From Clostridia bacterium (GTDB taxonomy: Bacteria > Bacillota > Dehalobacteriia > UBA7702), in contig JBJDXI010000069.1 of assembly GCA_051866595.1 (NCBI GenBank), positions 1-53,510 on the forward strand: 53,510 nt of DNA. Reading direction: 5' to 3'. A model generated the notes under the pieces. That model was given only the letters and a program-made list of their open reading frames with translations, was not told the origin of the DNA and did not search any database. Positions 1,076 through 33,107 of the stretch are shown one piece after another. Position 1 is the first letter of the stretch, and each line of letters begins with the position of its first letter. Both the position numbers and the translations under genes were made by a program.

Positions 1076-2866
1076 TTAATAGTTAAAAGTTGTGCAGAGG
1101 CGTTTTAACATCGCCGCCACATGGCTGCGCTGCGCCGGATGATTCGGACGGAAATACAAACCGTCCCATTCGTCACTGCCCCGAACTAAATCAACACCAA
1201 ATGCCCAGCTGACAGAATCAGAAGCCCAATCAGCGATTTCACCATTATCTTTAAATCCCGCCAGCATAACACTGTCATTTTCGTCATATAAACCCTCGGA
1301 TTTCGCAAAACGGCAGAAAATCACCGCCAGTTCCTGACGGCTGACAGGGTCTTCCGGTCTGAAAAGACCGTTACCGTCTCCTTTCACAATGCCTGTATTT
1401 TCCGCCCAGGCAACAGCATCTTTATACCAGCTAGCCGGGGCCACATCAGCAAAAGAACAATCACCGCTGACCAACGGTTCATCTTTCAGGCGGTAGAGCA
1501 CTGTCGCAATCATTCCACGGGTAGTCGATAAAGCAGGGCTGAACTTATTATCCCCCGTGCCGTTCATCAGACGATTGTAATACACAAATGCCACATCATC
1601 ATAAAACCAATCCGTATACTCTTCCGTTTTTATCACATCGTCAAAGAACATCGAAGGCGGCGATGTTACCAGTTTACGGAAATCCATGGAAATCTTTAGT
1701 TCCTCGGCGCTTTTCGTAATGATCTTTGCCGGACGGCCGTTGATATATGGAGTGATACCTTCGTCAAAAGCATAGCCGCTTTTGGCTTCCAGCGTAATAT
1801 TCACACTATATTTTTTATTGACAAGGAAGGTACTGCCGTAAGGTTCCCATGATACATTAGCCACAGTGTAACCTTCATAGCCCCCGGAAACCGATGCGGT
1901 ATTGGAAGGAACCGCGCCGATCAAAGGTTTTATAACATCAACGGAAACTTTATCAAGAAGTTTATCGAAGTTCAGCGAAATTTTTAACTCCTCGGCGCTT
2001 TTTGTAATGATCTTTGCCGGACGGCCGTTGATATTGGGAGTGACACCTTCGGCAAAAACATAACCGTCTTTGGCTTCCAGCGTAATCATCACGCTGTATG
2101 CCTTGCCGGCCTCAAAAGTACTGCAGGAAGGATCCCAGGAAACATTGGCTACGGTATAGCCTTCAAAACCGCCGGGGATCGAAGCAGAGGAGGAAGGAGC
2201 CGCGCCGATCAGAGGTTTTTCCACATTAACGGAGACTTCGCTCACATCGCTCAGCTCACGATACACTTTAATGTTATCAATACCGATTCCATACTGATTC
2301 TGAGCCTGATAAACAAAACCGATCTTCACTTCTTTGCCGCGATATTCCGACAGATTCACATACTTCGAAAGTTTCAAAGTACGGGACGCCGGAGAGGTAC
2401 AATATTCCCCGGAGGAAATGGATTCACTGTAAATTTCCCGTTCACCGGTACCGTCGGCGGCCTTGATATAAATCGAGTACTCTTCCGCAAAAGAAAGATT
2501 CAGCGTAAATACATCATAATTGAGATATACCTCACCTTTTTTCGGCATGGTAAAAGACGGAGTATACGCATAATCCTCCGGTTGCAGTTTCAACTGTACC
2601 TCGTCTTCCGTAACGGCAAAGGAATAATCGAGCAATGCGCCGGTTTTCACTTTGCCGCCGGAAGAAGGCACCACAGCCTCATACTTCCAGTTATAGCCGT
2701 CTTTATCCCCATCGATATAGGACCATTTCTCCGCTTCCGATGCCGTATCAAAGCCACAGGAATAGAGTGTTTCCGTGGCCGCCGAGACACCGAAGCTGAA
2801 GCACAGCACCATCGCCAGGGCGAGGCACATGGCAACCCATACCGGGATTATTTTCTTTGTTTTCAT
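1076..2866 (-). CDS. Secreted SLH protein with a cleaved-adhesin-like (choice-of-anchor J-like) N-terminal domain, two ~95 aa repeats and 3 SLH motifs
   Basis: Signal peptide; WSYIDGDKDGYNW...IDNIKV; SLH motifs TRGMIA, SRQELA and QRSHVA. Confidence 0.8.
   Translation of the reverse strand: MKTKKIIPVWVAMCLALAMVLCFSFGVSAATETLYSCGFDTASEAEKWSYIDGDKDGYNWKYEAVVPSSGGKVKTGALLDYSFAVTEDEVQLKLQPEDYAYTPSFTMPKKGEVYLNYDVFTLNLSFAEEYSIYIKAADGTGEREIYSESISSGEYCTSPASRTLKLSKYVNLSEYRGKEVKIGFVYQAQNQYGIGIDNIKVYRELSDVSEVSVNVEKPLIGAAPSSSASIPGGFEGYTVANVSWDPSCSTFEAGKAYSVMITLEAKDGYVFAEGVTPNINGRPAKIITKSAEELKISLNFDKLLDKVSVDVIKPLIGAVPSNTASVSGGYEGYTVANVSWEPYGSTFLVNKKYSVNITLEAKSGYAFDEGITPYINGRPAKIITKSAEELKISMDFRKLVTSPPSMFFDDVIKTEEYTDWFYDDVAFVYYNRLMNGTGDNKFSPALSTTRGMIATVLYRLKDEPLVSGDCSFADVAPASWYKDAVAWAENTGIVKGDGNGLFRPEDPVSRQELAVIFCRFAKSEGLYDENDSVMLAGFKDNGEIADWASDSVSWAFGVDLVRGSDEWDGLYFRPNHPAQRSHVAAMLKRLCTTFNY
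1672..2240 (-). repeat. Intragenic tandem duplication, 2 x ~285 bp
   Basis: VSV.V.KPLIGA.PS...GYTVANVSW...ITLEAK.GY.F.EG.TP.INGRPAKIITKSAEELKIS occurs twice; boundaries approximate. Confidence 0.85.
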
Positions 2867-11127: not shown

Positions 11128-12291
11128 TCAGGCTTTGCCGTCAAAATGAACGACCGTTTCATACTCCATACCCTTTTCTTTTAAACCGGCGTCGATTTGC
11201 TCTTTCAATTCCTTATAGGGCGTTTCCATGCTGTAAGGCACCGCCAGATCGAAAACGAGCTTGGTCTGATGAGCGCCGCGGACAAGGCGGAAATCGTGCA
11301 TGGAGAGGGCGGGATGAATCCCGGCAATGACGGTTTTCACCTGTTCCCGGGCGTCGTTCCATTCATCGTCGTTGAGAACGACGGGGTCGTAATGAATCAC
11401 CAGATTCACGTTGAGCTCCTCCATGGCCTCCCACTCGATTTCATCAATCATATCGTGGCAGTCCAGGGGATCTTCCTCGGCGCTGACTTCGGCGTGAACC
11501 GTGGCGTAGCATTGCCCCGGGCCATAATCGTGAACAAGGAGATCGTGGATGCCCAGCACCTTTTCGCGGGAAAGCACCATTTGGCTTAAATTTTCAATCA
11601 GCTCCTCATCGGCCTGTTTCCCCAGGAGGGGCGAAATCGTTTCCCTGGCGATATTCACACCGGAATAAAGAATGAACAACGCCACGGCCAGACCGACGAT
11701 GCCGTCGATATTCACATGGAAGAAATACTGCACCAGACAGCCCAGCAGAACCGCCGAGGACGTAATCACGTCGTTGCGGCTGTCCACGGAAGTGGCTTTC
11801 AGCGTAGTGGAGCGGATTTTCTTGCCCAGAGAACCGAAAAAGCCCATCATCCACAGCTTGACGCTGATGGAGGCAAGGAGCACGATAAAGGTAAACAGCG
11901 TAAATTCCACCGCCGCGGGATGAATGATTTTCATTACCGAGGTTTTGGCCAGCTCCGCGCCGATGATCAGAATCAGCGCCGCCACCACCAGACCGGAGAG
12001 GTATTCATAGCGGGCGTGGCCGTAGGGATGCTCGGCGTCGGCGGGTTGCTGAGCCATGCGGAACCCCAACAGCGTCACAACGGAAGAGGACGCGTCGGAA
12101 AGGTTGTTCACCGCGTCGGCAATGATGGAAACGGAACCTGCAATCCAGCCCACCACCAGTTTCCCCAGAAATAAAAGCGTGTTGCAGACAATGCCCGTCA
12201 ACCCGGCCAGCTTGCCGATGGCCGAACGCACCGAGGGATCTTCCACCCGGCTGTGGTCTTTGACAAAGAGCCGTAAAAGAAGATTCGTCAT
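11128..12291 (-). CDS. Cation diffusion facilitator transporter (probable Co/Ni efflux)
   Basis: ADAVNNLSD, HPYGHARYE, DSRND and HDLLVHDYGP motifs; lies downstream of a NiCo riboswitch. Confidence 0.92.
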   Translation of the reverse strand: MTNLLLRLFVKDHSRVEDPSVRSAIGKLAGLTGIVCNTLLFLGKLVVGWIAGSVSIIADAVNNLSDASSSVVTLLGFRMAQQPADAEHPYGHARYEYLSGLVVAALILIIGAELAKTSVMKIIHPAAVEFTLFTFIVLLASISVKLWMMGFFGSLGKKIRSTTLKATSVDSRNDVITSSAVLLGCLVQYFFHVNIDGIVGLAVALFILYSGVNIARETISPLLGKQADEELIENLSQMVLSREKVLGIHDLLVHDYGPGQCYATVHAEVSAEEDPLDCHDMIDEIEWEAMEELNVNLVIHYDPVVLNDDEWNDAREQVKTVIAGIHPALSMHDFRLVRGAHQTKLVFDLAVPYSMETPYKELKEQIDAGLKEKGMEYETVVHFDGKA

Positions 12292-12360
12292 AAAAAAACA
12301 CCTCCGAACTGTTTTCAGACCGAAATCCGAAAGAAAAAACCACGAAGCAGCAATTCTTTT

Positions 12361-12430
12361 ACTGTCCCGTGGTACAATCCACTGTCACAAAAGTGACCCG
12401 ACTCCAGACGTATATCCGGTCTGTTCAGTT
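12361..12430 (-). ncRNA. NiCo (czcD) riboswitch
   Basis: AACTGAACAGAC-[hairpin]-GTC-GG-GTCAC/GTGAC-GTGG/CCAC-GGGACAGT four-way-junction pattern, directly upstream of a CDF gene. Confidence 0.8.
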
Positions 12431-12529
12431 TCGCTATTTCGTATTGCGTGAATCATATTTATTTATTATATCAGCCACAGCGTACAGCGTCAACAAAAAA
12501 ATACAGCGCCGGATTTCATCCCAAAATCA

Positions 12530-17528: not shown

Positions 17529-17664
17529 GCCGCATGACGTATTCTGACTCGGCTTCCATGTTTCCCTCGCCTTCCCGTTCTCAAAGGAACAGTGGCATCT
17601 GAGGTTCCCTCGGCCTCACAGCACCTTGGTAGTGTCCGGGATTTTCACCCGATTCCTATGCGGC
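17529..17664 (-). ncRNA. Cobalamin riboswitch 1
   Basis: AGGAATCGGGTGAAAATCCCG...CTGTGA...GCCACTG...CGGGAAGGC...AGTCAGAATAC. Loop TACCAAG is complementary to downstream CTTGGTG. Promoter TTGACT-17-TATATT at ~17720-17748. Confidence 0.9.
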
Positions 17665-17921
17665 GTTCCGATTCTGTTTATTTTTTCAGCGCACAAAATT
17701 AAATACTTATGTTATGTATAATATATCACGGAGTGCTCCGAAAGTCAATCAAAAAAGGCGAAAGGAACAAAAAAACCTTGGCGGAGCACACTAACAAACG
17801 ATACGATGCTCCGCAAGAAAATCAATTTTCGAGAACAAAATATTTGAAGTCAATTTCGCGAAAAAGCCTTGTTTTTCTCCGACAGCGTGGTATAATCATA
17901 TTGTAAATTGAATTGAACAGA

Positions 17922-18072
17922 GCAAAACGACGGAGAAACCGAGTTGGAATCTCGGACGGTCGCGCCACTGTGATGCGGAGCGTGCTTCGGATGAAAGTCA
18001 GCCACTGTAAAGTATGTTTATGGGAAGGCGAAGCAACGCGTTGATGCGAAGTCAGGATATTCCCCGTTTTGC
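17922..18072 (+). ncRNA. Cobalamin riboswitch 2, divergent, no downstream CDS
   Basis: CCGAGTTGGAATCTCGGACGGTCGCGCCACTGTGA...GCCACTG...TGGGAAGGC...AAGTCAGGATA. Kissing hairpin GCTTC-CGCGGAA-GAAGC at 18085-18101. Promoter TGnTATAAT at 17888-17896. Confidence 0.9.
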
Positions 18073-18119
18073 GTTTGAGTCTCAGCTTCCGCGGAAGAAG
18101 CGACGGTCTTTTTTATTGG

Positions 18120-18322
18120 AGAAAAGCCCCGTTTCTTTTTAGAAGCGGGGTCGATTTTATTTACATGTTGCCAAACTCAGTTCGTGTTCCGCATCTTTCC
18201 GTGTCTCTAAGGCATGAGGAACACACTCACCTCTTCTATTAAGGATAACTCCTTAACTACAAATCTCCTTTCCTTTTCTCTTTCTTTTCTCTCCGGCGGC
18301 CTTCAGCGGCCGCTCTTTTTTT
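18120..18322 (+). ncRNA. Candidate riboswitch-controlled sRNA (CU-rich)
   Basis: Hairpins, then CACCTC, CTCCTT and CTCCTTTCC motifs, ending in GCGGCC/GGCCGC plus a T run; no credible ORF. Confidence 0.45.
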
Positions 18323-18394
18323 GTATGAATCTACGCCAATCCCTCTTCTTCCCCCCCCCGGTTTAGGGAAAATCTTTTCCGTTTCCAAACAGCC

Positions 18395-18433
18395 GAAGGC
18401 CGATGCTGGTTTCAGCATCGGCCTTCTTTTTTT
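18395..18433. terminator. Strong terminator hairpin between convergent units
   Basis: GAAGGCCGATGCTG/CAGCATCGGCCTTC followed by T7. Confidence 0.8.
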
Positions 18434-18473
18434 CATTTCATCACAAGGAGGAAAAATACAGGAGGGATTCCTG

Positions 18474-21401
18474 TTATTTTGTCGTCATTTCCGCGAAACG
18501 CTGGATCACCGCGGCGGCCTGGGCCCGGGTGGCGCTGCCTTTCGGTTCCAGGGTGCCGTTATCATGACCCTGCATCAGCTTGGAGGCCACGGCCCAGCCC
18601 ATTTCTTCTTTCGCCCAGTCGCTGACGGTATTTCCGTCTTTGAAAGCGTCAAAGGAAGCGGTATTCGATACATCACAGCCGTTGAGTTTGGCGTAGCGGT
18701 ACATCATCGCCGCCATCTGTTCCCTGGTGATGCTGTCCATCGGACTGAATTTGCCGTTATAACCTTCCACGATGCCTTTTTCCGTGCCCCATGCCACGGC
18801 TTTGGAATACCATTCATCGTCTTTCACATCATCATAAGAAGATGTGGCTTTGACTTCCGGTTTACCGCCCAGGCGGTAAAGCATGGTGATATACATGGCC
18901 CGGGTCAATTCACTGTCCGGTTCAAAGGTCGTTCCCGTCATGCCGTTCATAATGCCGTTGACATAGACATAGCGGACAGAATCCTGATACCAGCCGTCCT
19001 TTGCCAGATCGGTAAAGGGAATTTCCGCGGTGATATAGGCGTAGGCTTCTTCGGCGGCAACAAGGTCATCGGCCTTTGAGACCAGAGCTTTCTGGTCGGC
19101 GGTCAAAGCGTTATAGGCGGCACGGGCCGCATCGATGGCGTCTTTGCTGTCAAGGGTCACTTCGCCGATGGCGGCGATTTTTTCATCCACCGCTTTGGCG
19201 GCGGCTTTGTCCGCGGCTTCTTTTTCCAGCTGAGCCAGTTTCGCTTCGGCGGCGGTGAGTGTATCGGCCTTGGTCACAAGGGCTTTTGCTTCATCGGAGA
19301 GAGCGTCATAGGCGGCACGAGCCCCTTCGATGGTGTCTTTGCTGTCGAGAGTCACTTCACCGATGGCGGCGATTTTCTTATCCACAGCGTCGGCGGCCAG
19401 CTGCTGTTTGACTTCGTCTTTCATGGCAATGGCAAAAATAGCGCCGCTGTCGTTTTTATGATAGATGGTGCCGTCTTCGTCGCAGATCACACTGGCGGTG
19501 CACCACTGTTCAAATCTTGCGGCATCGTAAAGGGTGGTCTGAACGGCTTCGGAACCGTCGGCTTTGGCCTTGATCACTTCCACGCCGCCGGGATTGTTGT
19601 TATAGGCAACATAAAGATACAGGTAACCGTCTTCTTCATAAGCGGTGGAGAGCAAAGGCGAAGTCTGAGCGTGGCCGCTTCCATTCACCGACCATTTGAT
19701 TTCTTTGGTGCTGAGGTCAATGCCGATGTAATGACCGTCTCCCCCTTTGCCCACGCCCATATAGGCCATGCCTTTATAGATCACCGGGGTGCTGGTGGCA
19801 CCGGTGCCGTAGGCGGAGCAGTCGATGATCTCAAGATCCGAAAGTTCGCCGGTTTCGCCGTTGATGGCCGCCATGCCCAGCTTACCGTTGTTGATGGCGA
19901 AGTATACTTTGCCGTTGTCATAGCAGACCGAGGAACGGATCGTGGTAGCTTCGCCCACCTCCAGATCGGTGACCAGCTTGCCGGTTTCTTTATCGCGGCT
20001 GTAAAGGTGGCCGCTGTCGCTGCCGTAGACTACATAATCGCCGACGATGGCGGCGCCGGCCCAATAGAAGCCTCTGGCATCGGTGGCACGCCAGATCAGT
20101 TTACCGGTTTCCGCGTCGAGACAGACAAAGGCATCTTCCTTGTTATACCCCCCAAATCCGGTGTAGATTTTGCCGTCGTCATAAGTGACGGGGCTGTAGG
20201 CGCCGCCGCCGTTTTCATCTTTATAAATCCATACGGAGTTCAGTGTTTTGGCGCTGAGAGCTTCCACAGTGCCGCCACCCAGAGGGCAGAAGATCAGACC
20301 GTCGCTGTAAGTAGCCGGAACCGTACCCCAGCTGTAGGAAGCGGATAATGCGCCGACGGCGGTGACTTCGCCGGTAACTTTATTGATTTTCTTTACGCTG
20401 TTTCCGCAGATGGAAACGACGGAATCATCCACAAGGATCAGGGGAGAAGGCGTATCGGACCAGTCGGTGCTGAAGGTCTTCTCCCAGAGCACTTCGGTTT
20501 CTTCGACGGTGCGGGGGGTCTGAGCCGCAGTGATACCGTTATTGATGCTGTTATTGCGGAACGAGGACCAGTCGGAATCATAAACCACACGGTCCATTTC
20601 CACTTCAATGGTGTATTCCGTGGCGCCGGAAGAGGTGTTCATCGAGGGCCAGGAGGTATCGCCGCATTTCACGGTGATGACAAGACCTTTGTCCACCGGA
20701 ATTTCCTCAGTGCGCTTGTATTCTTTGTCCCCCACATAAATGCGAACCTGGAAGTTTTTGTTTTCCGCGGTGGGCGTGATTTTTACCGAATCGGTGCCTT
20801 CGGGAAGTTTCAGGGAATATTCGTTGACATCCCCGTCAAATTCCGGCGATAAGGTGCCTTCGCTGGATTCCAGCGCTTTCAGCGCTGTGCTGTTGTTGTT
20901 CCAGGAGCCGCCGAGGTCTTCACCCATGGTAATGCTGTAACAGACACAAATCTCATCTCCGTCAGCCAAAGTTCCATCCGCAACAGTATAAGCAGAGAAG
21001 CCCTCATTGGTAAACCAATCATTCAGTGTACCCATCCAACCGGAATAACCACCGCCATCAAATGCACTGAGACCGTTAATCGAAGAAATATAACCGGAAT
21101 CCAGGCCTTCCGCCGTGAGGCCTTCACTTTCAAGGGCGGCCTTTACACAGCTCATCATCGTGGAGTCGTCATTCAGTTCCACCCAGGTATCCACCAGGGT
21201 ACCGGTCCAGAAGGAGTCTTCCCAGGTCAGATCGTTTTCTTCCGCAAATTCTTCATCAAAAGTGGTGTTTTCAATAATGACATGAACTTTATCCGTATCA
21301 CCGGAAAGACCGGTATCCAGCAGCGTCGCGGCGGAAAGGCCGGAGCTGAACGCGAAGATACAGAGAATCATGCAAAGTAAGCTAAGCCATTGTTTTTTCA
21401 T
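18474..21401 (-). CDS. SLH protein: DUF4430-like, cadherin-like beta-sandwich, PQQ-like beta-propeller, 2 helical repeats, 3 SLH
   Basis: YISSINGLSAFDGGGYSGWMGTLNDWF; LSPEFDGDVNEY; WSSFRNN and CLDAETGKLIW blades; start MKKQWL after an RBS. Confidence 0.8.
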   Translation of the reverse strand: MKKQWLSLLCMILCIFAFSSGLSAATLLDTGLSGDTDKVHVIIENTTFDEEFAEENDLTWEDSFWTGTLVDTWVELNDDSTMMSCVKAALESEGLTAEGLDSGYISSINGLSAFDGGGYSGWMGTLNDWFTNEGFSAYTVADGTLADGDEICVCYSITMGEDLGGSWNNNSTALKALESSEGTLSPEFDGDVNEYSLKLPEGTDSVKITPTAENKNFQVRIYVGDKEYKRTEEIPVDKGLVITVKCGDTSWPSMNTSSGATEYTIEVEMDRVVYDSDWSSFRNNSINNGITAAQTPRTVEETEVLWEKTFSTDWSDTPSPLILVDDSVVSICGNSVKKINKVTGEVTAVGALSASYSWGTVPATYSDGLIFCPLGGGTVEALSAKTLNSVWIYKDENGGGAYSPVTYDDGKIYTGFGGYNKEDAFVCLDAETGKLIWRATDARGFYWAGAAIVGDYVVYGSDSGHLYSRDKETGKLVTDLEVGEATTIRSSVCYDNGKVYFAINNGKLGMAAINGETGELSDLEIIDCSAYGTGATSTPVIYKGMAYMGVGKGGDGHYIGIDLSTKEIKWSVNGSGHAQTSPLLSTAYEEDGYLYLYVAYNNNPGGVEVIKAKADGSEAVQTTLYDAARFEQWCTASVICDEDGTIYHKNDSGAIFAIAMKDEVKQQLAADAVDKKIAAIGEVTLDSKDTIEGARAAYDALSDEAKALVTKADTLTAAEAKLAQLEKEAADKAAAKAVDEKIAAIGEVTLDSKDAIDAARAAYNALTADQKALVSKADDLVAAEEAYAYITAEIPFTDLAKDGWYQDSVRYVYVNGIMNGMTGTTFEPDSELTRAMYITMLYRLGGKPEVKATSSYDDVKDDEWYSKAVAWGTEKGIVEGYNGKFSPMDSITREQMAAMMYRYAKLNGCDVSNTASFDAFKDGNTVSDWAKEEMGWAVASKLMQGHDNGTLEPKGSATRAQAAAVIQRFAEMTTK

Positions 21402-27744: not shown

Positions 27745-29799
27745 TCAATAAGATTCAATAAATTTTTCGGGATACTCCCCGGCGGCGCCGTTCAGCCCGC
27801 CGATGTCGCGTCCCAGATTCAGTGTGAACCGAATGGAAAGCCGCTGACCGTCATTGAGATAAACGCCGCTCAAACCGCAATTGGGATAAAACTCATCCAC
27901 GGCGATATTCCAGCCGGATTTGGCATAGAAATCCATCTCTCCGAGACTGTCCGGACTCCAGACTCCGGTTTCCGAGGCGCCGTCCCTGTCAAGGTATTCC
28001 AGGAGACTGGCGGGAATTTCAACATTTGGAACAAGATTTTCTCCGTAGATCCGAGCCAGGTAAAACCCGCTGTCCAGCGTACCTGTAGAATCAAAGGAGA
28101 TATTACAGCTGTCAAAAAGCCGTTTCACCACATAAGACGCCGGTTCACCGTCGTAAATTTCCACTTGCGTCGGCGGAACGATGTATCCCAGGCCCAGCGT
28201 AGTGGCTTCCACGCTGACGGTGGCATAACCGATGGGCCCGTCGTTCCGGTGATAGGTCAGGTGGAAAATATAGAGAGCGTTATAGCCCTCGTCATCCTTG
28301 ACGTAAACCGTCACCTCATTCTCCGGCGAAGATAGATTCAGAAGATAGCTGGTCTTTTCGTTTTCCCCCTCAAGCCGCACAGGGCTTCCGTTCAGCTTCA
28401 CCGAAATGTTGCTGGAATAGAGACGCTCTCCGTGATAATCATAAGCGATCAGATCCACGGTGTATTTGCTGTTGTTCACCGTCATGGGATCCGTCAGATT
28501 GCATTGGATCGTCGGCGCGTGGGCTTTATCGGGAATTGGATTTTCCGCTGTGGCCTGCTGCCGTTCAAAATAGATCTTATAGCTGCGGGAAACTTTCTGA
28601 TCGCCGTCTTTCGCCGTGATGGTCACGGTGTTTTCACCGTGGGAAAGTTCCATACTGAATTTTCCGTTTCCGTCGCTCTGCTGGGTTTTACCGCCGTTCA
28701 GACGCACCGATATTTTGGCGTTTTCGCTGTTGACCATCCATACGGAAAAAGCGAGGTTCGCCTCGGAAACGGTCATGCCGTCGGTGAGATCGGTCTCGAA
28801 ATCAAAAATACCGGAACTGATATAGGTAACCGTGTAAGTTTCCTCTTTGCGCAGGCCGTTTTTCTCGGCGGAAAGGACGAAAACATTGGCGCCGTCTTTC
28901 AGCCGCACCCGGTAGCTGCCGGCACTGCCTTCGGTTTTTTCACCGTTCAGCGTCACCGTTAACGGCGTGTCTTCTCCAAGATAGGAGGCATCGGCCGTAA
29001 AGGAAAGAAGATCCCGGTCTACGGTCTGATCTTTCAGAGATGTATTGATCACAAGGCTTTTCGTATCCAGATAAACGGTATAGTCTTTATAAGGCGAGGC
29101 GACGATTTTGCCGGAAGCGTCGGCATAATCGATCTTAACCCGAATGGTGTTTTTTCCTTCGGTAAGATCCACTTTGCCGTTGAACTGGGGAACCAGATGC
29201 CCGTTGACAAAAACCTGAACCTCTTTGGGGCTTAACGAGGAATCTTTATGACGGATAGAAAAGGAGTAATCCTTTACGGTTACCGTCTCGCCGTCTTTGA
29301 TGGAAGTGGTGAAATACTCCGTAGAGGTGGTATTTCCGTTTTCCGTATTGCCGCCGGCGATACCGTTATTTCCCGGTGAAGCGGGAGCATCCGCCGTGGA
29401 TTGAGAAGTAGAGGATGGTTTTTGCTCTGTTTCCGGATCACTGTCGTTCCCTTCGGGCTGGGCCGATTCTTCCTCTTCTTCCTCAGGCTCCGATTCCTCT
29501 TCTTTTTCATCGTTCAGCGCTTCATCGCTGAGTTCCTGTTCCTCCCCATCGGTCTGTTCCGAAGCGACGGGAACCGGAATATAAACATTTTCATCGGTTT
29601 CCCCTTCGCAATCCAGCACGGAAGATTCCGCATCCCAGGAAGAGGAAGCTCCCGCAATGGGGTTTTCCGGAGCCGTTTCCCCGGCGAAAAGAGCACCGCA
29701 GCCCAAAATAAGAAAAAAGGCAATAAGGAGCAAACCCATTCCCACAGACGACGCCCTCTCCCGGTAAAAGGAAAGGCACCGGCTGAGAATCGTTTTCAT
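27745..29799 (-). CDS. Exported protein: acidic linker, several Ig-like modules and a C-terminal DUF4430-like domain
   Basis: N-terminal hydrophobic anchor; repeated L..G.N.I.V modules; LGEMDFYAKSGWNIAV...RFTLNLGRDIG. Confidence 0.7.
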   Translation of the reverse strand: MKTILSRCLSFYRERASSVGMGLLLIAFFLILGCGALFAGETAPENPIAGASSSWDAESSVLDCEGETDENVYIPVPVASEQTDGEEQELSDEALNDEKEEESEPEEEEEESAQPEGNDSDPETEQKPSSTSQSTADAPASPGNNGIAGGNTENGNTTSTEYFTTSIKDGETVTVKDYSFSIRHKDSSLSPKEVQVFVNGHLVPQFNGKVDLTEGKNTIRVKIDYADASGKIVASPYKDYTVYLDTKSLVINTSLKDQTVDRDLLSFTADASYLGEDTPLTVTLNGEKTEGSAGSYRVRLKDGANVFVLSAEKNGLRKEETYTVTYISSGIFDFETDLTDGMTVSEANLAFSVWMVNSENAKISVRLNGGKTQQSDGNGKFSMELSHGENTVTITAKDGDQKVSRSYKIYFERQQATAENPIPDKAHAPTIQCNLTDPMTVNNSKYTVDLIAYDYHGERLYSSNISVKLNGSPVRLEGENEKTSYLLNLSSPENEVTVYVKDDEGYNALYIFHLTYHRNDGPIGYATVSVEATTLGLGYIVPPTQVEIYDGEPASYVVKRLFDSCNISFDSTGTLDSGFYLARIYGENLVPNVEIPASLLEYLDRDGASETGVWSPDSLGEMDFYAKSGWNIAVDEFYPNCGLSGVYLNDGQRLSIRFTLNLGRDIGGLNGAAGEYPEKFIESY

Positions 29800-30000
29800 G
29801 AAACGCCCCCTTCCGGTCTCCTCATTTTACAAACAGCAGAAAGGCAGCAAGCTCACGCCTGCCGCTTTCCGCAAAGAGGAGAATAAGAGAAAAAGAATAA
29901 CGAATATAACGCGTTTTACAACTCACGAAGGATGATTTCCCGGGAGTCTTATCGGGAGCATCCATTCGTCAAAAATGCAGAGAAACAGCGAGGGCCGCCG

Positions 30001-30258
30001 GGGATCCACCCGTGTGCTGATGGATTCTTTCCCCGAAAACCGCCCTTGCGCGCCGACATACCTGTTTCTTCAAGGAGACTCCGTGGCGGGCATATCACCC
30101 CATCCCCGAAGAATACCGCGGCGCCTGCCGGTAAAGAGCCTTTGAATCCGATCCCTACGGCCCGTGTGCTGACCGTCTGAAACGGGGCTTTCCTTTCCCG
30201 GCAATCTATTACATCCTTTCGGAGACTCCTTTATGGTTTCATACCATTCCGAAAAGAT
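30001..30258 (-). ncRNA. Candidate tandem structured RNA element in the leader
   Basis: Two ~150-nt units, each with a GGA(A)TGG..CCA..GGAGTCTCC junction and a hairpin containing TCAGCACACGGG. Confidence 0.45.
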
Positions 30259-30270
30259 ATAAACAAAGAC

Positions 30271-30330
30271 AAAAAAAGTGCGCAGAATCAGACCGGAAGA
30301 AGAGGGTCTCCCGAGCCGACAACTGCACAC
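30271..30330 (-). terminator. Second leader terminator/attenuator
   Basis: GTGTGCAG...CTGCGCAC followed by T7. Confidence 0.55.
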
Positions 30331-30356
30331 GTAAAACAATATAGAGTTTCCTATTC

Positions 30357-30389
30357 AAAAAAAACCGCAAAAGCATTGAGCCTTTGCGG
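30357..30389 (-). terminator. Riboswitch-3 terminator
   Basis: CCGCAAAGGC...GCTTTTGCGG followed by T8. Confidence 0.75.
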
Positions 30390-30436
30390 ACGCCTGACAT
30401 CAACTGTATGTGGCAGCTGAACGTTCGATCGATCCG

Positions 30437-30570
30437 CCAAAGCAAGTATCCCGACTTAGATTCAACGCCCTTTCCCGCCTTCTCGATCATAGATCAATGG
30501 CATATGGGAACGGCTCATCATCACGGTGGCCATACCGCAGAGGAATTGCACCTCTATTCCATAGCTCTGG
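30437..30570 (-). ncRNA. Cobalamin riboswitch 3
   Basis: GGAATAGAGGTGCAATTCCTCTGCGGTATGGCCACCGTGA...GCCATTG...GAGAAGGC...AAGTCGGGATAC. GTATG is complementary to a downstream CATAC loop. Promoter TTGCAT-17-TATGAT at 30596-30624. Confidence 0.9.
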
Positions 30571-30648
30571 AATCGTTTTTTTCGATTGTAGATATATCAT
30601 ACCATCGTTCTTTTGAAAATGCAAGAAGAATTTTTCAAAAAGCAAAAG

Positions 30649-30680
30649 AATATGCTCCCGGCTTTCATCGGGAGCATATT
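30649..30680 (-). terminator. Terminator of the 803-aa gene
   Basis: AATATGCTCCCG/CGGGAGCATATT stem. Confidence 0.75.
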
Positions 30681-30695
30681 TCACAAACAATCATT

Positions 30696-33107
30696 TTACA
30701 GTGACAGAACAAAGCGCATCATAACCGCGGCGATCTGCGCTCTTGTGGCGGAACCTTTCGGCGCCAGAATGATCCGCCCACCGTCGGTGGTACCGCCGAT
30801 ATATCCCTGTTTCACCGCCCACTGGAAGGGCTTCATGGCATAGGGCGAAATTTCGACGGCATCCGGGAAGGAGGAAACGGAAGTCACGGAGGATACATCC
30901 ATTCCTTTGTATTCATCGCAGTAACGATAGAAAATCGTTACCATCTGTTCTCTGGTAATCATTGCGTCAGGAGAGAACGTATCATCGGAGGTTCCTTTGA
31001 CAATACCGTTCTGATAAGCCCACACAACGGCATTTTGATACCAGTCGGCCGTCAGATCGGTAAAGGGCACCCCGCCCTTCACAGCAGGGGAACCGCTGTA
31101 CCGATACAGGATCACCACAAGCTGTGCCCGGGTTGTATTTTTATCCGGAGCGAATACTGTTGTTTCCATACCGTTCATCAACCCGTTCCAGTAATTGAAC
31201 AAAACGCCGTCACGGTACCAATCTCCGCTTTTCACATCACGGAAAGGATTTTCCTTGATTTTCGTTTCAGCGGCAGTCAAAGCCGAAAGGTTTGTTACCA
31301 GAGCCTGTTCTTCCTTGGTCAGTTGTTCATAGGCGATCCGGGCTTCGGCAACGCTTTTTTCGGAGATACGTCCGTTGAGACCGTTAATTTTCGCCGTGAC
31401 CGCCGCCACCGCTTCGTGGTCAACGGAATCCGTTACGGAAATATCCACCGAGGTATAAAGAGGAGAAACCGTCTGATTGATATTGTTCTGATCGTTATCG
31501 TTATTTCCGTCGTCGGTATCCCGGTACATCACATGGGAAAAGGTCAGCGTCACTTCAATATCATCCTCTGTCAGCGGATCCGTACTGTATTCCACATATT
31601 CCGTCACATCCCGGGTTTTTCCGTTGGCGTAGGTGGCCGTAACAACCATACCGGCGGGATCAAAGGTTTCCCCGGCATTATATTCGGTTTTATCCGGTTC
31701 CTTTGTGACTTCCAGCTTTTTGATGCTCCAGCCCAGTGCCATAATGTAGCAGGAATCGTTTTTGAAATACATCGTGCCGTACTCATCGCAGATGGCGCTG
31801 CCGAGGGCATACTGCACCTGTTCCCCGGCGGGAGTAAATAAAATCTCCGCGAATTGGGATTTGCTGTCCATCTCGGTCTGGCCGGGCTTATCCTTGATCA
31901 CCCGAACTTTGCCGGGCACATAATTTTCAATAAAATAGACATAAACCGAACCGTCGGTTTCCTCGTAGGCCGTGGTTAAAAGTCCGCTGGTCTGAACGCA
32001 GCCCTGGGTGGGGCAGGAATAGGCCACTTCACCTTTTTCCAGATCGATGACGTCGATATGATGGCCCAGTTCGATATTTTCCGCGTCGGTCTGCACAAAC
32101 TGTCCCTGTTTGCCCTGAACGCCGACGTAAGCCCGGCCGTTATAGATCACCGGAGTACAGGAAACCTTGCCGCCGAGATCCATTTCAAGCATATTCTCTT
32201 CATCGAGATTCCCTTCGGCGTCTACGGGAACTCCATAGAAGGAACCGCCCTGGGAGGCGAAGTAAGCCGTCCCTGCGCCGTCGCCGTCTTCATCCACAAA
32301 CGCGACGGTACTGCGGATATCACCGTTCAAACCTTCAATTTTGTCAATCACCTGCGCTTTACCGCCGTCGCTGTGATTGCCGGAGCGAACCGAATAAAAG
32401 ACCGAAGATCGTGCAACCCCCTCACCGGTGGATGCGTCGCCCTCACCGTCATCGGAGCCGACGAGAAGATAATTGTCATTCACATAGCACCCGGCCCAGT
32501 AAAAACCGCCGGTATGGGTCAGCGTCCAGACTTCTTCACCGGTCTCAGCGTCAACGCAGACATAATCCGCTTCCGAGGTGGAGGAACGCCAGTAACCGGT
32601 ATAAACGTAACCATCATGATAAGTCACCGGACAGTTGGACTGCCCTCGGTTCTCGTTCTGATACAGCCATCCCGCGGTCATCGTCTCTAAATCCATCACC
32701 TGAAGCTTGCCGTTGGCCAGCGACACATAGAGAGAACCGTCACAGTAGGTCGGCGGCGTAATATTCCAGGAAGAGGAGCTGGCGGCATCCAGTTCCCCCT
32801 GCTGAATCACTTCCCCGGTCACCGAATCCACCTTGTATACAATATTGCTGCAAAAAAAGACGATGGCGTCATCGACGATAATCGGGGGACTCGGCGCGTA
32901 ATCCCAGCCTGTACCGATTTTCTTCGCCCAGTAAAGAGTCGCGTCATCGGCCTGGGTCGGCAGAGCGACGGACGTCACACCGTTATTTTCCGGATTCCCC
33001 CGGAAATTACCCCAGGTATAGGCGTAAAGTCCCTGAGCGGAAAAGCAAAGAAAACACATAACGGCCAGGGCCAAAAGGGCCAAACGACATGATTTTTTTC
33101 GTTTCAT
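30696..33107 (-). CDS. SLH protein: PQQ-like beta-propeller, Ig-like domain, helical repeat, 3 SLH
   Basis: WGNFRGN, CVDAETGEEVW and YFKNDS motifs shared with the 18474-21401 protein; PDKTEYNAGETFDPAGMVVTATY; SLH motifs. Confidence 0.8.
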   Translation of the reverse strand: MKRKKSCRLALLALAVMCFLCFSAQGLYAYTWGNFRGNPENNGVTSVALPTQADDATLYWAKKIGTGWDYAPSPPIIVDDAIVFFCSNIVYKVDSVTGEVIQQGELDAASSSSWNITPPTYCDGSLYVSLANGKLQVMDLETMTAGWLYQNENRGQSNCPVTYHDGYVYTGYWRSSTSEADYVCVDAETGEEVWTLTHTGGFYWAGCYVNDNYLLVGSDDGEGDASTGEGVARSSVFYSVRSGNHSDGGKAQVIDKIEGLNGDIRSTVAFVDEDGDGAGTAYFASQGGSFYGVPVDAEGNLDEENMLEMDLGGKVSCTPVIYNGRAYVGVQGKQGQFVQTDAENIELGHHIDVIDLEKGEVAYSCPTQGCVQTSGLLTTAYEETDGSVYVYFIENYVPGKVRVIKDKPGQTEMDSKSQFAEILFTPAGEQVQYALGSAICDEYGTMYFKNDSCYIMALGWSIKKLEVTKEPDKTEYNAGETFDPAGMVVTATYANGKTRDVTEYVEYSTDPLTEDDIEVTLTFSHVMYRDTDDGNNDNDQNNINQTVSPLYTSVDISVTDSVDHEAVAAVTAKINGLNGRISEKSVAEARIAYEQLTKEEQALVTNLSALTAAETKIKENPFRDVKSGDWYRDGVLFNYWNGLMNGMETTVFAPDKNTTRAQLVVILYRYSGSPAVKGGVPFTDLTADWYQNAVVWAYQNGIVKGTSDDTFSPDAMITREQMVTIFYRYCDEYKGMDVSSVTSVSSFPDAVEISPYAMKPFQWAVKQGYIGGTTDGGRIILAPKGSATRAQIAAVMMRFVLSL

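Follow-up and report, generated by a model that had tools for sequence, protein, structure and literature searches.

The leader of a cobalamin-riboswitch operon on a 53,510-nt contig of a Clostridia bacterium (JBJDXI010000069.1; the whole contig is called the window here) carries a real, conserved and previously uncatalogued element, which is duplicated in this genome (G000, a 1.87-Mb assembly) and constitutes a structured leader RNA in series with the riboswitch. The element, referred to below as the module, is made of two hairpins, H1 and H2, and is present as two units of ~150 nt on the minus strand (unit 1, 30262-30126; unit 2, 30113-29986). An earlier sequence-only reading of the window had described a twice-repeated module on this strand, and all of its elements were found at the places given there. 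Three further genomes of the same genus are designated G001, G002 and G003.

All leader elements are read on the minus strand. The leader is ~780 nt long, contains several hairpins and local duplications, and is ordered, 5' to 3', as a tentative promoter, the cobalamin aptamer, the terminators T1 and T2, the module, a stretch of ~165-195 nt, and the genes. The individual features are as follows.

30596..30624, minus strand: tentative promoter (TTGCAT, 17 nt, TATGAT), read by eye
30424..30582, minus strand: cobalamin riboswitch aptamer (RF00174; 53.3 bits against a gathering score of 31.5)
30357..30389, minus strand: terminator T1, a 10-bp stem (30389-30365) and U8, from the terminator scan
30271..30332, minus strand: intrinsic terminator T2 (stem 30330-30278), from the fold
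30332-30324, minus strand: T2 5' arm, ACGUGUGCA
30297-30286, minus strand: T2 inner conserved block, UCCGGUCUGAUU
30285-30278, minus strand: T2 3' arm
30277-30271, minus strand: T2 U7 tract
30209..30262, minus strand: unit 1 H1, with a 15-bp outer stem, an inner hairpin (30247-30233) and the 3' bulge AAAGGAGUC (30232-30224), from the fold and covariance model R1
30126..30203, minus strand: unit 1 H2, an extended hairpin with apical stem 30176-30157 and loop AGCACACG (30170-30163), from the fold, R1 and pair counts
30066..30113, minus strand: unit 2 H1, with an 11-bp outer stem, an inner hairpin and the 3' bulge CGGAGUC (30083-30077), from the fold, covariance models R1 and R2, and pair counts
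29986..30055, minus strand: unit 2 H2, an extended hairpin with apical stem 30025-30004 and loop AGCACACG (30018-30011), from the fold and pair counts
29925..29965, minus strand: hairpin with GACUCC in its loop (29948-29943), from the fold and the complementarity scan
29844..29865, minus strand: terminator-like hairpin near the ribosome-binding site, with nine pairs and a weak U tail, from the terminator scan
27745..29812, minus strand: ribosome-binding site (~29812-29804), ATG at 29799 and the first gene, 684 aa with a cadherin-like domain

Upstream of the leader lies an SLH-domain gene that ends at 30696 and has its own terminator (30680-30649). The putative promoter has a weak -35 box, and the promoter scan did not report the site. 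T1, which aligns with the terminator of G001, is the expression platform of the cobalamin riboswitch. T2 is located between T1 and the module and was absent from the sequence-only reading; its 5' arm and inner block are exact k-mers common to G002. Part of the inner block (30290-30299) shows a perfect 10-nt complementarity to 29810-29819, just upstream of the ribosome-binding site, where ~0.2 such matches are estimated to be expected by chance in the leader; this pairing was dropped, being found in G000 and absent in G002 and G003.

Two exact repeats set the register of the units: GGAGTCTCC is found at 30229-30221 and 30082-30074 (spacing 147) and TCAGCACACGGG at 30172-30161 and 30020-30009 (spacing 152), in keeping with the ~150-nt period noticed earlier. 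The 9-mer GGAGTCTCC has these two copies and no other in the 53.5-kb window (0.29 expected; two of 100 shuffles reach two copies), exact matches to CAGCACACGG are confined to the same two sites, and the combined motif pattern recovers only the two units in the whole 1.87-Mb assembly, with none in the reversed control. The long H1 hairpin has a bulge with GGAGU on its 3' strand; the bulge measures 7-9 nt in the G000 units and 11 nt in G002 and G003. H2, likewise long, ends in the 8-nt loop AGCACACG, which is closed in both G000 units by U.G and C-G pairs, and the linker between H1 and H2 varies from 33 to 55 nt. Outside the common blocks the two units can hardly be aligned (mean column identity is 70% with the blocks included), so the earlier description of differing stems around identical loops is correct. 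The folds drawn for unit 1 H1, for the unit 1 hairpin 30176-30157 and for unit 2 H1 were recovered as such, and the unit 2 hairpin came out at 30025-30004, a few bases off the 30001-30027 proposed. The suggested GGAGTC:GACTCC pairing did not hold up: GACTCC is indeed present at 29948-29943, in the loop of a hairpin that is specific to G000 and has no counterpart in G002 or G003, but the pairing is unsupported because no equivalent partner is kept in these two related species.

A BLAST search of all 73 genomes of the class with the riboswitch region identified orthologous riboswitch leaders in the three same-genus genomes (G002, 84% identity; G003, 83%; G001, 77%). Behind the riboswitch, G002 and G003 have terminator-like hairpins, a T2 homologue and then a single H1-H2 module, which thus occupies the same place as in the window, with cobalamin riboswitch and terminators before it and genes for B12-binder-like lipoproteins behind it. 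Here a two-gene operon of ~1.6 kb begins ~165 nt past the module and encodes a prenyltransferase-like toroid lipoprotein and a DUF4430 protein; the long operon of the window contains both of these genes as well. G001 shares the riboswitch and the long operon with the window but has a shorter leader and no module, and the module is therefore dispensable for the operon. The G001 leader does contain a T2-like hairpin without a U tract, a 13-mer common with unit 1 H1 and an H2-like hairpin, and this module-like stretch is taken as degenerate or never complete.

Several observations were made beside these leaders. A second GGAGU occurs in G002 and G003 (L029/L030 ~1145-1160, minus strand) ~155 nt downstream of the first, in the context ACCAAGGAGU, which resembles the 3' half of unit 1 H1; this stretch, which was not scored by R2, may be what is left of a second unit. 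A promoter-like site that follows the G002 module was discarded, being weaker in G003 (by eye), with none found there on this strand in G000. Just upstream of the G002 riboswitch, a trimethylamine methyltransferase (MttB) gene (L044 14936-16405, minus strand) is broken by one in-frame TAG (L044 15424-15422) into parts of 327 and 143 aa, as expected for a pyrrolysine codon. An orthologue of the first operon gene in genome G005 follows an SLH gene after a 120-nt spacer with no riboswitch and was set aside.

The sequence-only reading had suggested a conserved RNA structure and, among the ways to check it, a covariance model. R1, built from the G002 and G003 copies only, was run over 89 kb and recovers both window units, with 25.1 bits for unit 1 (E=6.9e-5) and 12.3 bits for unit 2 (E=0.18); the G001 leader and seven further loci with cobalamin riboswitches gave no match. 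R2 was built from all four copies and scores unit 2 at 88.4 bits, a value that includes this unit's own sequence in the model. Each copy folded alone yields the same architecture. Fold z-scores are -3.3, -4.2 and -4.0 for three of the copies (0/200 shuffles as stable; unit 1, -3.97) and -1.1 for unit 2, for which 24/200 shuffles are as stable, so that it is not by itself more stable than shuffled sequence.

Compensatory changes are abundant in the four-row alignment A9, where 95.5% of 133 pair cells form standard pairs and 19 of the 35 pairs are changed on both sides, although these counts are inflated by the fitting of A9 to the model structure. None of 500 shuffles reached the pairing or the change values, and controls in which the partners were slid by 1-3 columns paired at 41-57%. 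The doubly changed pairs are spread over three helices, all of which contribute (5, 3 and 11). As G002 and G003 are 98% identical in the module, the alignment represents three effectively independent versions. G.U pairs, which would be A.C on the opposite strand, make up 24 of the 133 cells, and the RNA therefore lies on the minus strand, like the riboswitch and the genes. Unpaired and invariant are GGAGU in the H1 bulge and AGCACACG in the H2 loop, the latter with closing pairs U.G and Y-G; GGAGU and UYAGCACACGGG are constant across the copies and every stem differs. The module is under selection for its structure and for the sequences of bulge and loop, and we consider it highly probable that it is a genuine conserved structured RNA.

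This combination of drifting stems and constant loops bears on whether the module might be a ligand-free structural element, such as a stabiliser, a processing site or a Rho shield, that arose by repeated duplication of terminator-like hairpins. The many hairpins and local duplications of the leader would suit such an origin, as would the resemblance of the H2 5' strand and loop to the 3' half of T2, and G001 manages without the module. Stability or shielding, however, needs neither an invariant 12-nt loop region nor GGAGU amid drifting stems, and we regard an origin and role of this kind as unlikely.

The Rfam 15 covariance scan returned no match to the module in the window at gathering scores, none at E<=10 in 29750-30700 and none at E<=10 in the G002 leader, consistent with the earlier remark that the family was not recognised. 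A dispersed repeat or mobile element is not indicated either, as the motif pair and R2 match nothing but this leader in G000, G002 and G003. Run against the 73 class genomes, R2 found G000 (twice), G002 and G003 and no module in the other 70, laxer filters gave the same three in the 14 family genomes, and a degenerate motif pattern was absent from all 400 further phylum genomes sampled; the module is confined to three species of one genus. It is also non-coding: G000 and G002 share no reading frame, the best six-frame match between them reaching 15.4 bits (E=0.05). Having no Rfam match, homologues with compensatory changes and no further occurrence in the genomes searched, the module is therefore a real structured leader RNA of very narrow distribution, duplicated in this genome.

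Weaker matches were set aside. A BLAST search of 60 relatives with the 621-nt leader yielded five short matches at E<=0.01 and nothing useful; three are chance matches, two in apparent coding stretches and one 27-nt intergenic, and the remaining two (L004, L007) fall on leader positions outside the module. The exact motifs matched twice in species-representative genomes (Specibacter and a Geobacteraceae MAG), without the hairpin context, and once in the JGI metagenomes, inside a 401-aa ORF; all three are taken as chance matches because the hairpins are absent or the match lies in an ORF. A 24-nt riboswitch anchor common to G000 and G001 had no match in the JGI metagenomes, a collection that seems to be without this lineage. 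A weak R2 match in genome G043 (E=0.21) lacks the loop motif, and of seven weak R2 matches within the family (E 1-7.4) six lack both motifs and the other, L048, was left out of the comparison. Most of the public runs in which the stretch occurs are pig-gut metagenomes.

Transcription of the leader and its module is weakly suggested by contigs assembled from three RNA libraries, which carry no information on strand, ends or level and may contain DNA. Contig X17 covers 30331-30585, X15 covers 30255-30453 and thus bridges T1 and T2, and X16 extends from unit 1 into unit 2 (30067-30228); the stretch 29600-30066 has no cover, which is uninformative either way. In a variant contig of 93% identity the inner stem AUGG/CCAU is kept and the bulge begins GAAGGA.

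The operon behind the window leader comprises seven genes over 11 kb, down to 18474. The gene for the 684-aa protein is followed by those for a MoxR ATPase, a DUF58 protein, a transglutaminase, a prenyltransferase-like toroid protein, a DUF4430 protein and a 998-aa SLH/DUF4430 protein. In every case the genes behind the module include the prenyltransferase-like toroid lipoprotein and a DUF4430 protein, a family of B12 binders.

Other riboswitches in the window lie outside this leader. A full-length cobalamin riboswitch on the plus strand (17892-18082, 60.5 bits) points at the 3' end of the minus-strand gene for the 998-aa protein (stop at 18474) and is followed by terminator-like hairpins (~18123-18160 and ~18393-18440) and by no plausible plus-strand gene; it could control a small or antisense RNA made at the distal end of the operon described above. 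The third match to the cobalamin riboswitch (17539-17656, minus strand, 60.9 bits, model positions 47-167 only) precedes a 132-aa ORF without a Pfam match and a gene for an 877-aa SLH protein, and has no H1-H2 module. A NiCo riboswitch (12360-12437, minus strand, 47 bits) is located directly upstream of a cation-efflux (CDF) gene (11128-12291).

An 11-kb, seven-gene operon with a two-hairpin architecture in its leader brings to mind processive antitermination, in which the module would modify RNA polymerase to read through operon-internal terminators. The put RNA of phage HK022 and the EAR RNA of Bacillus act in this way, and as compact multi-hairpin RNAs in a leader or operon that need no adjacent expression platform they resemble the module. 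The differences are considerable: the module has no sequence or model match to them, nor to any Rfam antitermination family, the strong terminators lie upstream and not downstream of it, and in G002 and G003 it precedes a short operon of only two genes. A single NusG-domain gene per genome was found in 13 of the 14 family genomes, and with only one such gene a LoaP-type partner system is disfavoured. Processive antitermination is therefore a most improbable function for the module, given these points against it.

The explanation that we favour, tentatively and at somewhat less than even confidence, is that the window carries tandem copies of one conserved cis-encoded RNA module in a B12-riboswitch operon leader, which form a second checkpoint read by a trans-acting factor. 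Invariant nucleotides in loop and bulge on drifting stems are the usual signature of recognition by a partner in trans. On this view the module would act behind the riboswitch as a second regulatory checkpoint. Its invariant bulge and loop would be recognised by a factor supplied in trans, a protein more probably than a metabolite, and this factor would determine what becomes of transcripts that extend beyond T1 and T2, at the level of elongation, stability or translation; the duplication in G000 would provide two binding units. That a trans factor reads bulge and loop is, as a claim of its own, possible and held a shade more loosely still. Since the relatives have one unit before a two-gene operon, tandem copies and an 11-kb operon are not intrinsic to the element. 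Against the checkpoint, no conserved expression platform follows the module, the start codon is ~165 nt away in G002 and G003, and in the window only unit 2 overlaps a weak terminator-like hairpin (30000-29986, terminator scan), with the 3' base strand of its H2. No obvious RNA-binding regulator that could serve as the factor is encoded in the window.

The same overlap makes unit 2 H2 and the terminator-like hairpin mutually exclusive, which would suit an orphan riboswitch aptamer, a small-molecule binder that forms a two-input gate with the cobalamin riboswitch and whose doubling sharpens the response. The variable H1-H2 linker is in line with this, and a review (PMC9481103) describes tandems of an AdoCbl riboswitch and a second sensor (c-di-GMP-I, c-AMP-GMP or T box), validated riboswitches beside orphan candidates, and duplicated sensor domains in series. 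The leader shares with the AdoCbl tandems described there (PMC9481103) the order of a cobalamin OFF switch, its own terminator and, further along, a second structured RNA; unlike in those systems, the module belongs to no known class, lies behind the additional, constitutive-looking T2 and lacks a conserved expression platform. A classical riboswitch is made less likely by the lack of a conserved platform behind the module, which in G002 and G003 no terminator follows. The conserved nucleotides, moreover, are in an apical loop and a bulge and not in a multi-helix junction, and the occurrence in three species contrasts with metabolite sensors, which are usually widespread. We consider an aptamer of this kind unlikely.

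Similar systems also include EutX and Rli55, B12-riboswitch-controlled RNAs with hairpins that bind ANTAR proteins. ANTAR sites consist of two short hairpins with hexanucleotide loops that have A at position 1 and G at position 4. In these RNAs, as in the leader described here, a B12 riboswitch decides on the transcription of downstream paired hairpins with conserved loops and variable stems, whereas the module has an 8-nt loop and a bulge instead of two hexaloops and its RNA continues into genes. An ANTAR-binding dual hairpin was rejected on this ground, the H2 loop having 8 nt and the conserved site of H1 being a 7-11-nt bulge. One ANTAR gene is present in 12 of the 14 family genomes, with or without the module, and does not track it.

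The H2 loop is further related to T2. In three species it is perfectly complementary to 7 nt of the T2 5' arm (CGUGUGC with GCACACG), and the adjoining position co-varies (G with C in G000, A with U in G002 and G003). All three genomes have one and the same T2 5' arm, whereas the 3' arm is different in each. In the complementarity scan this 5' arm was the only H2-loop partner conserved in all three species. Within the leader it is also the top duplex partner of both window loops and of the G003 loop, and the second for G002. Together with G001, which has neither the T2 U tract nor the module, these observations would fit an RNA-RNA switch in which the H2 loop would mimic the T2 3' arm, pair with the 5' arm and thereby remodel or prevent T2 in read-through transcripts or in trans. 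Such a switch is nevertheless rather unlikely. H2 is made ~130-300 nt after the T2 U tract, too late to save its own transcript from termination; the duplex, at -13.4 kcal/mol, has only a small margin over the runners-up at -11 to -12; the co-variation concerns one position in two lineages; and H1 and the invariant GGAGU are left unexplained. The likeness of H2 to T2 could also be a relic of H2 having arisen by duplication of a terminator arm. The loop/T2-arm pairing may instead have a role in trans or after transcription.

It is even conceivable, if quite improbable, that H2 is a decoy of the terminator 3' arm whose loop captures the T2 5' arm on neighbouring nascent transcripts, which would amount to feed-forward antitermination in trans. 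The first polymerase past T2 would then help the following ones through by way of the leader of its sibling mRNA, an effect that the doubled module in G000 would strengthen. Other pairings were dropped: that of the H2 loop with UGUGUUAA near the start in G002 and G003 is not conserved, and that of GGAGU with the 5' strand of riboswitch P1 covers 5-6 nt only. Pairing of the module to the ribosome-binding site was not conserved across the species compared.

The weight of the finding is limited by its occurrence in only three species, and the mechanism is a proposal. The finding itself is an uncatalogued structured RNA with compensatory changes, coupled to a cobalamin riboswitch and to genes of apparent surface B12 binders in an uncultured pig-gut bacterium. 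Should the pairing of the H2 loop with the terminator arm be functional, it would be a mode of terminator control for which we know of no precedent. If a factor reads the module, the leader would integrate B12 with a second signal and add one more mixed riboswitch gate to a short list.
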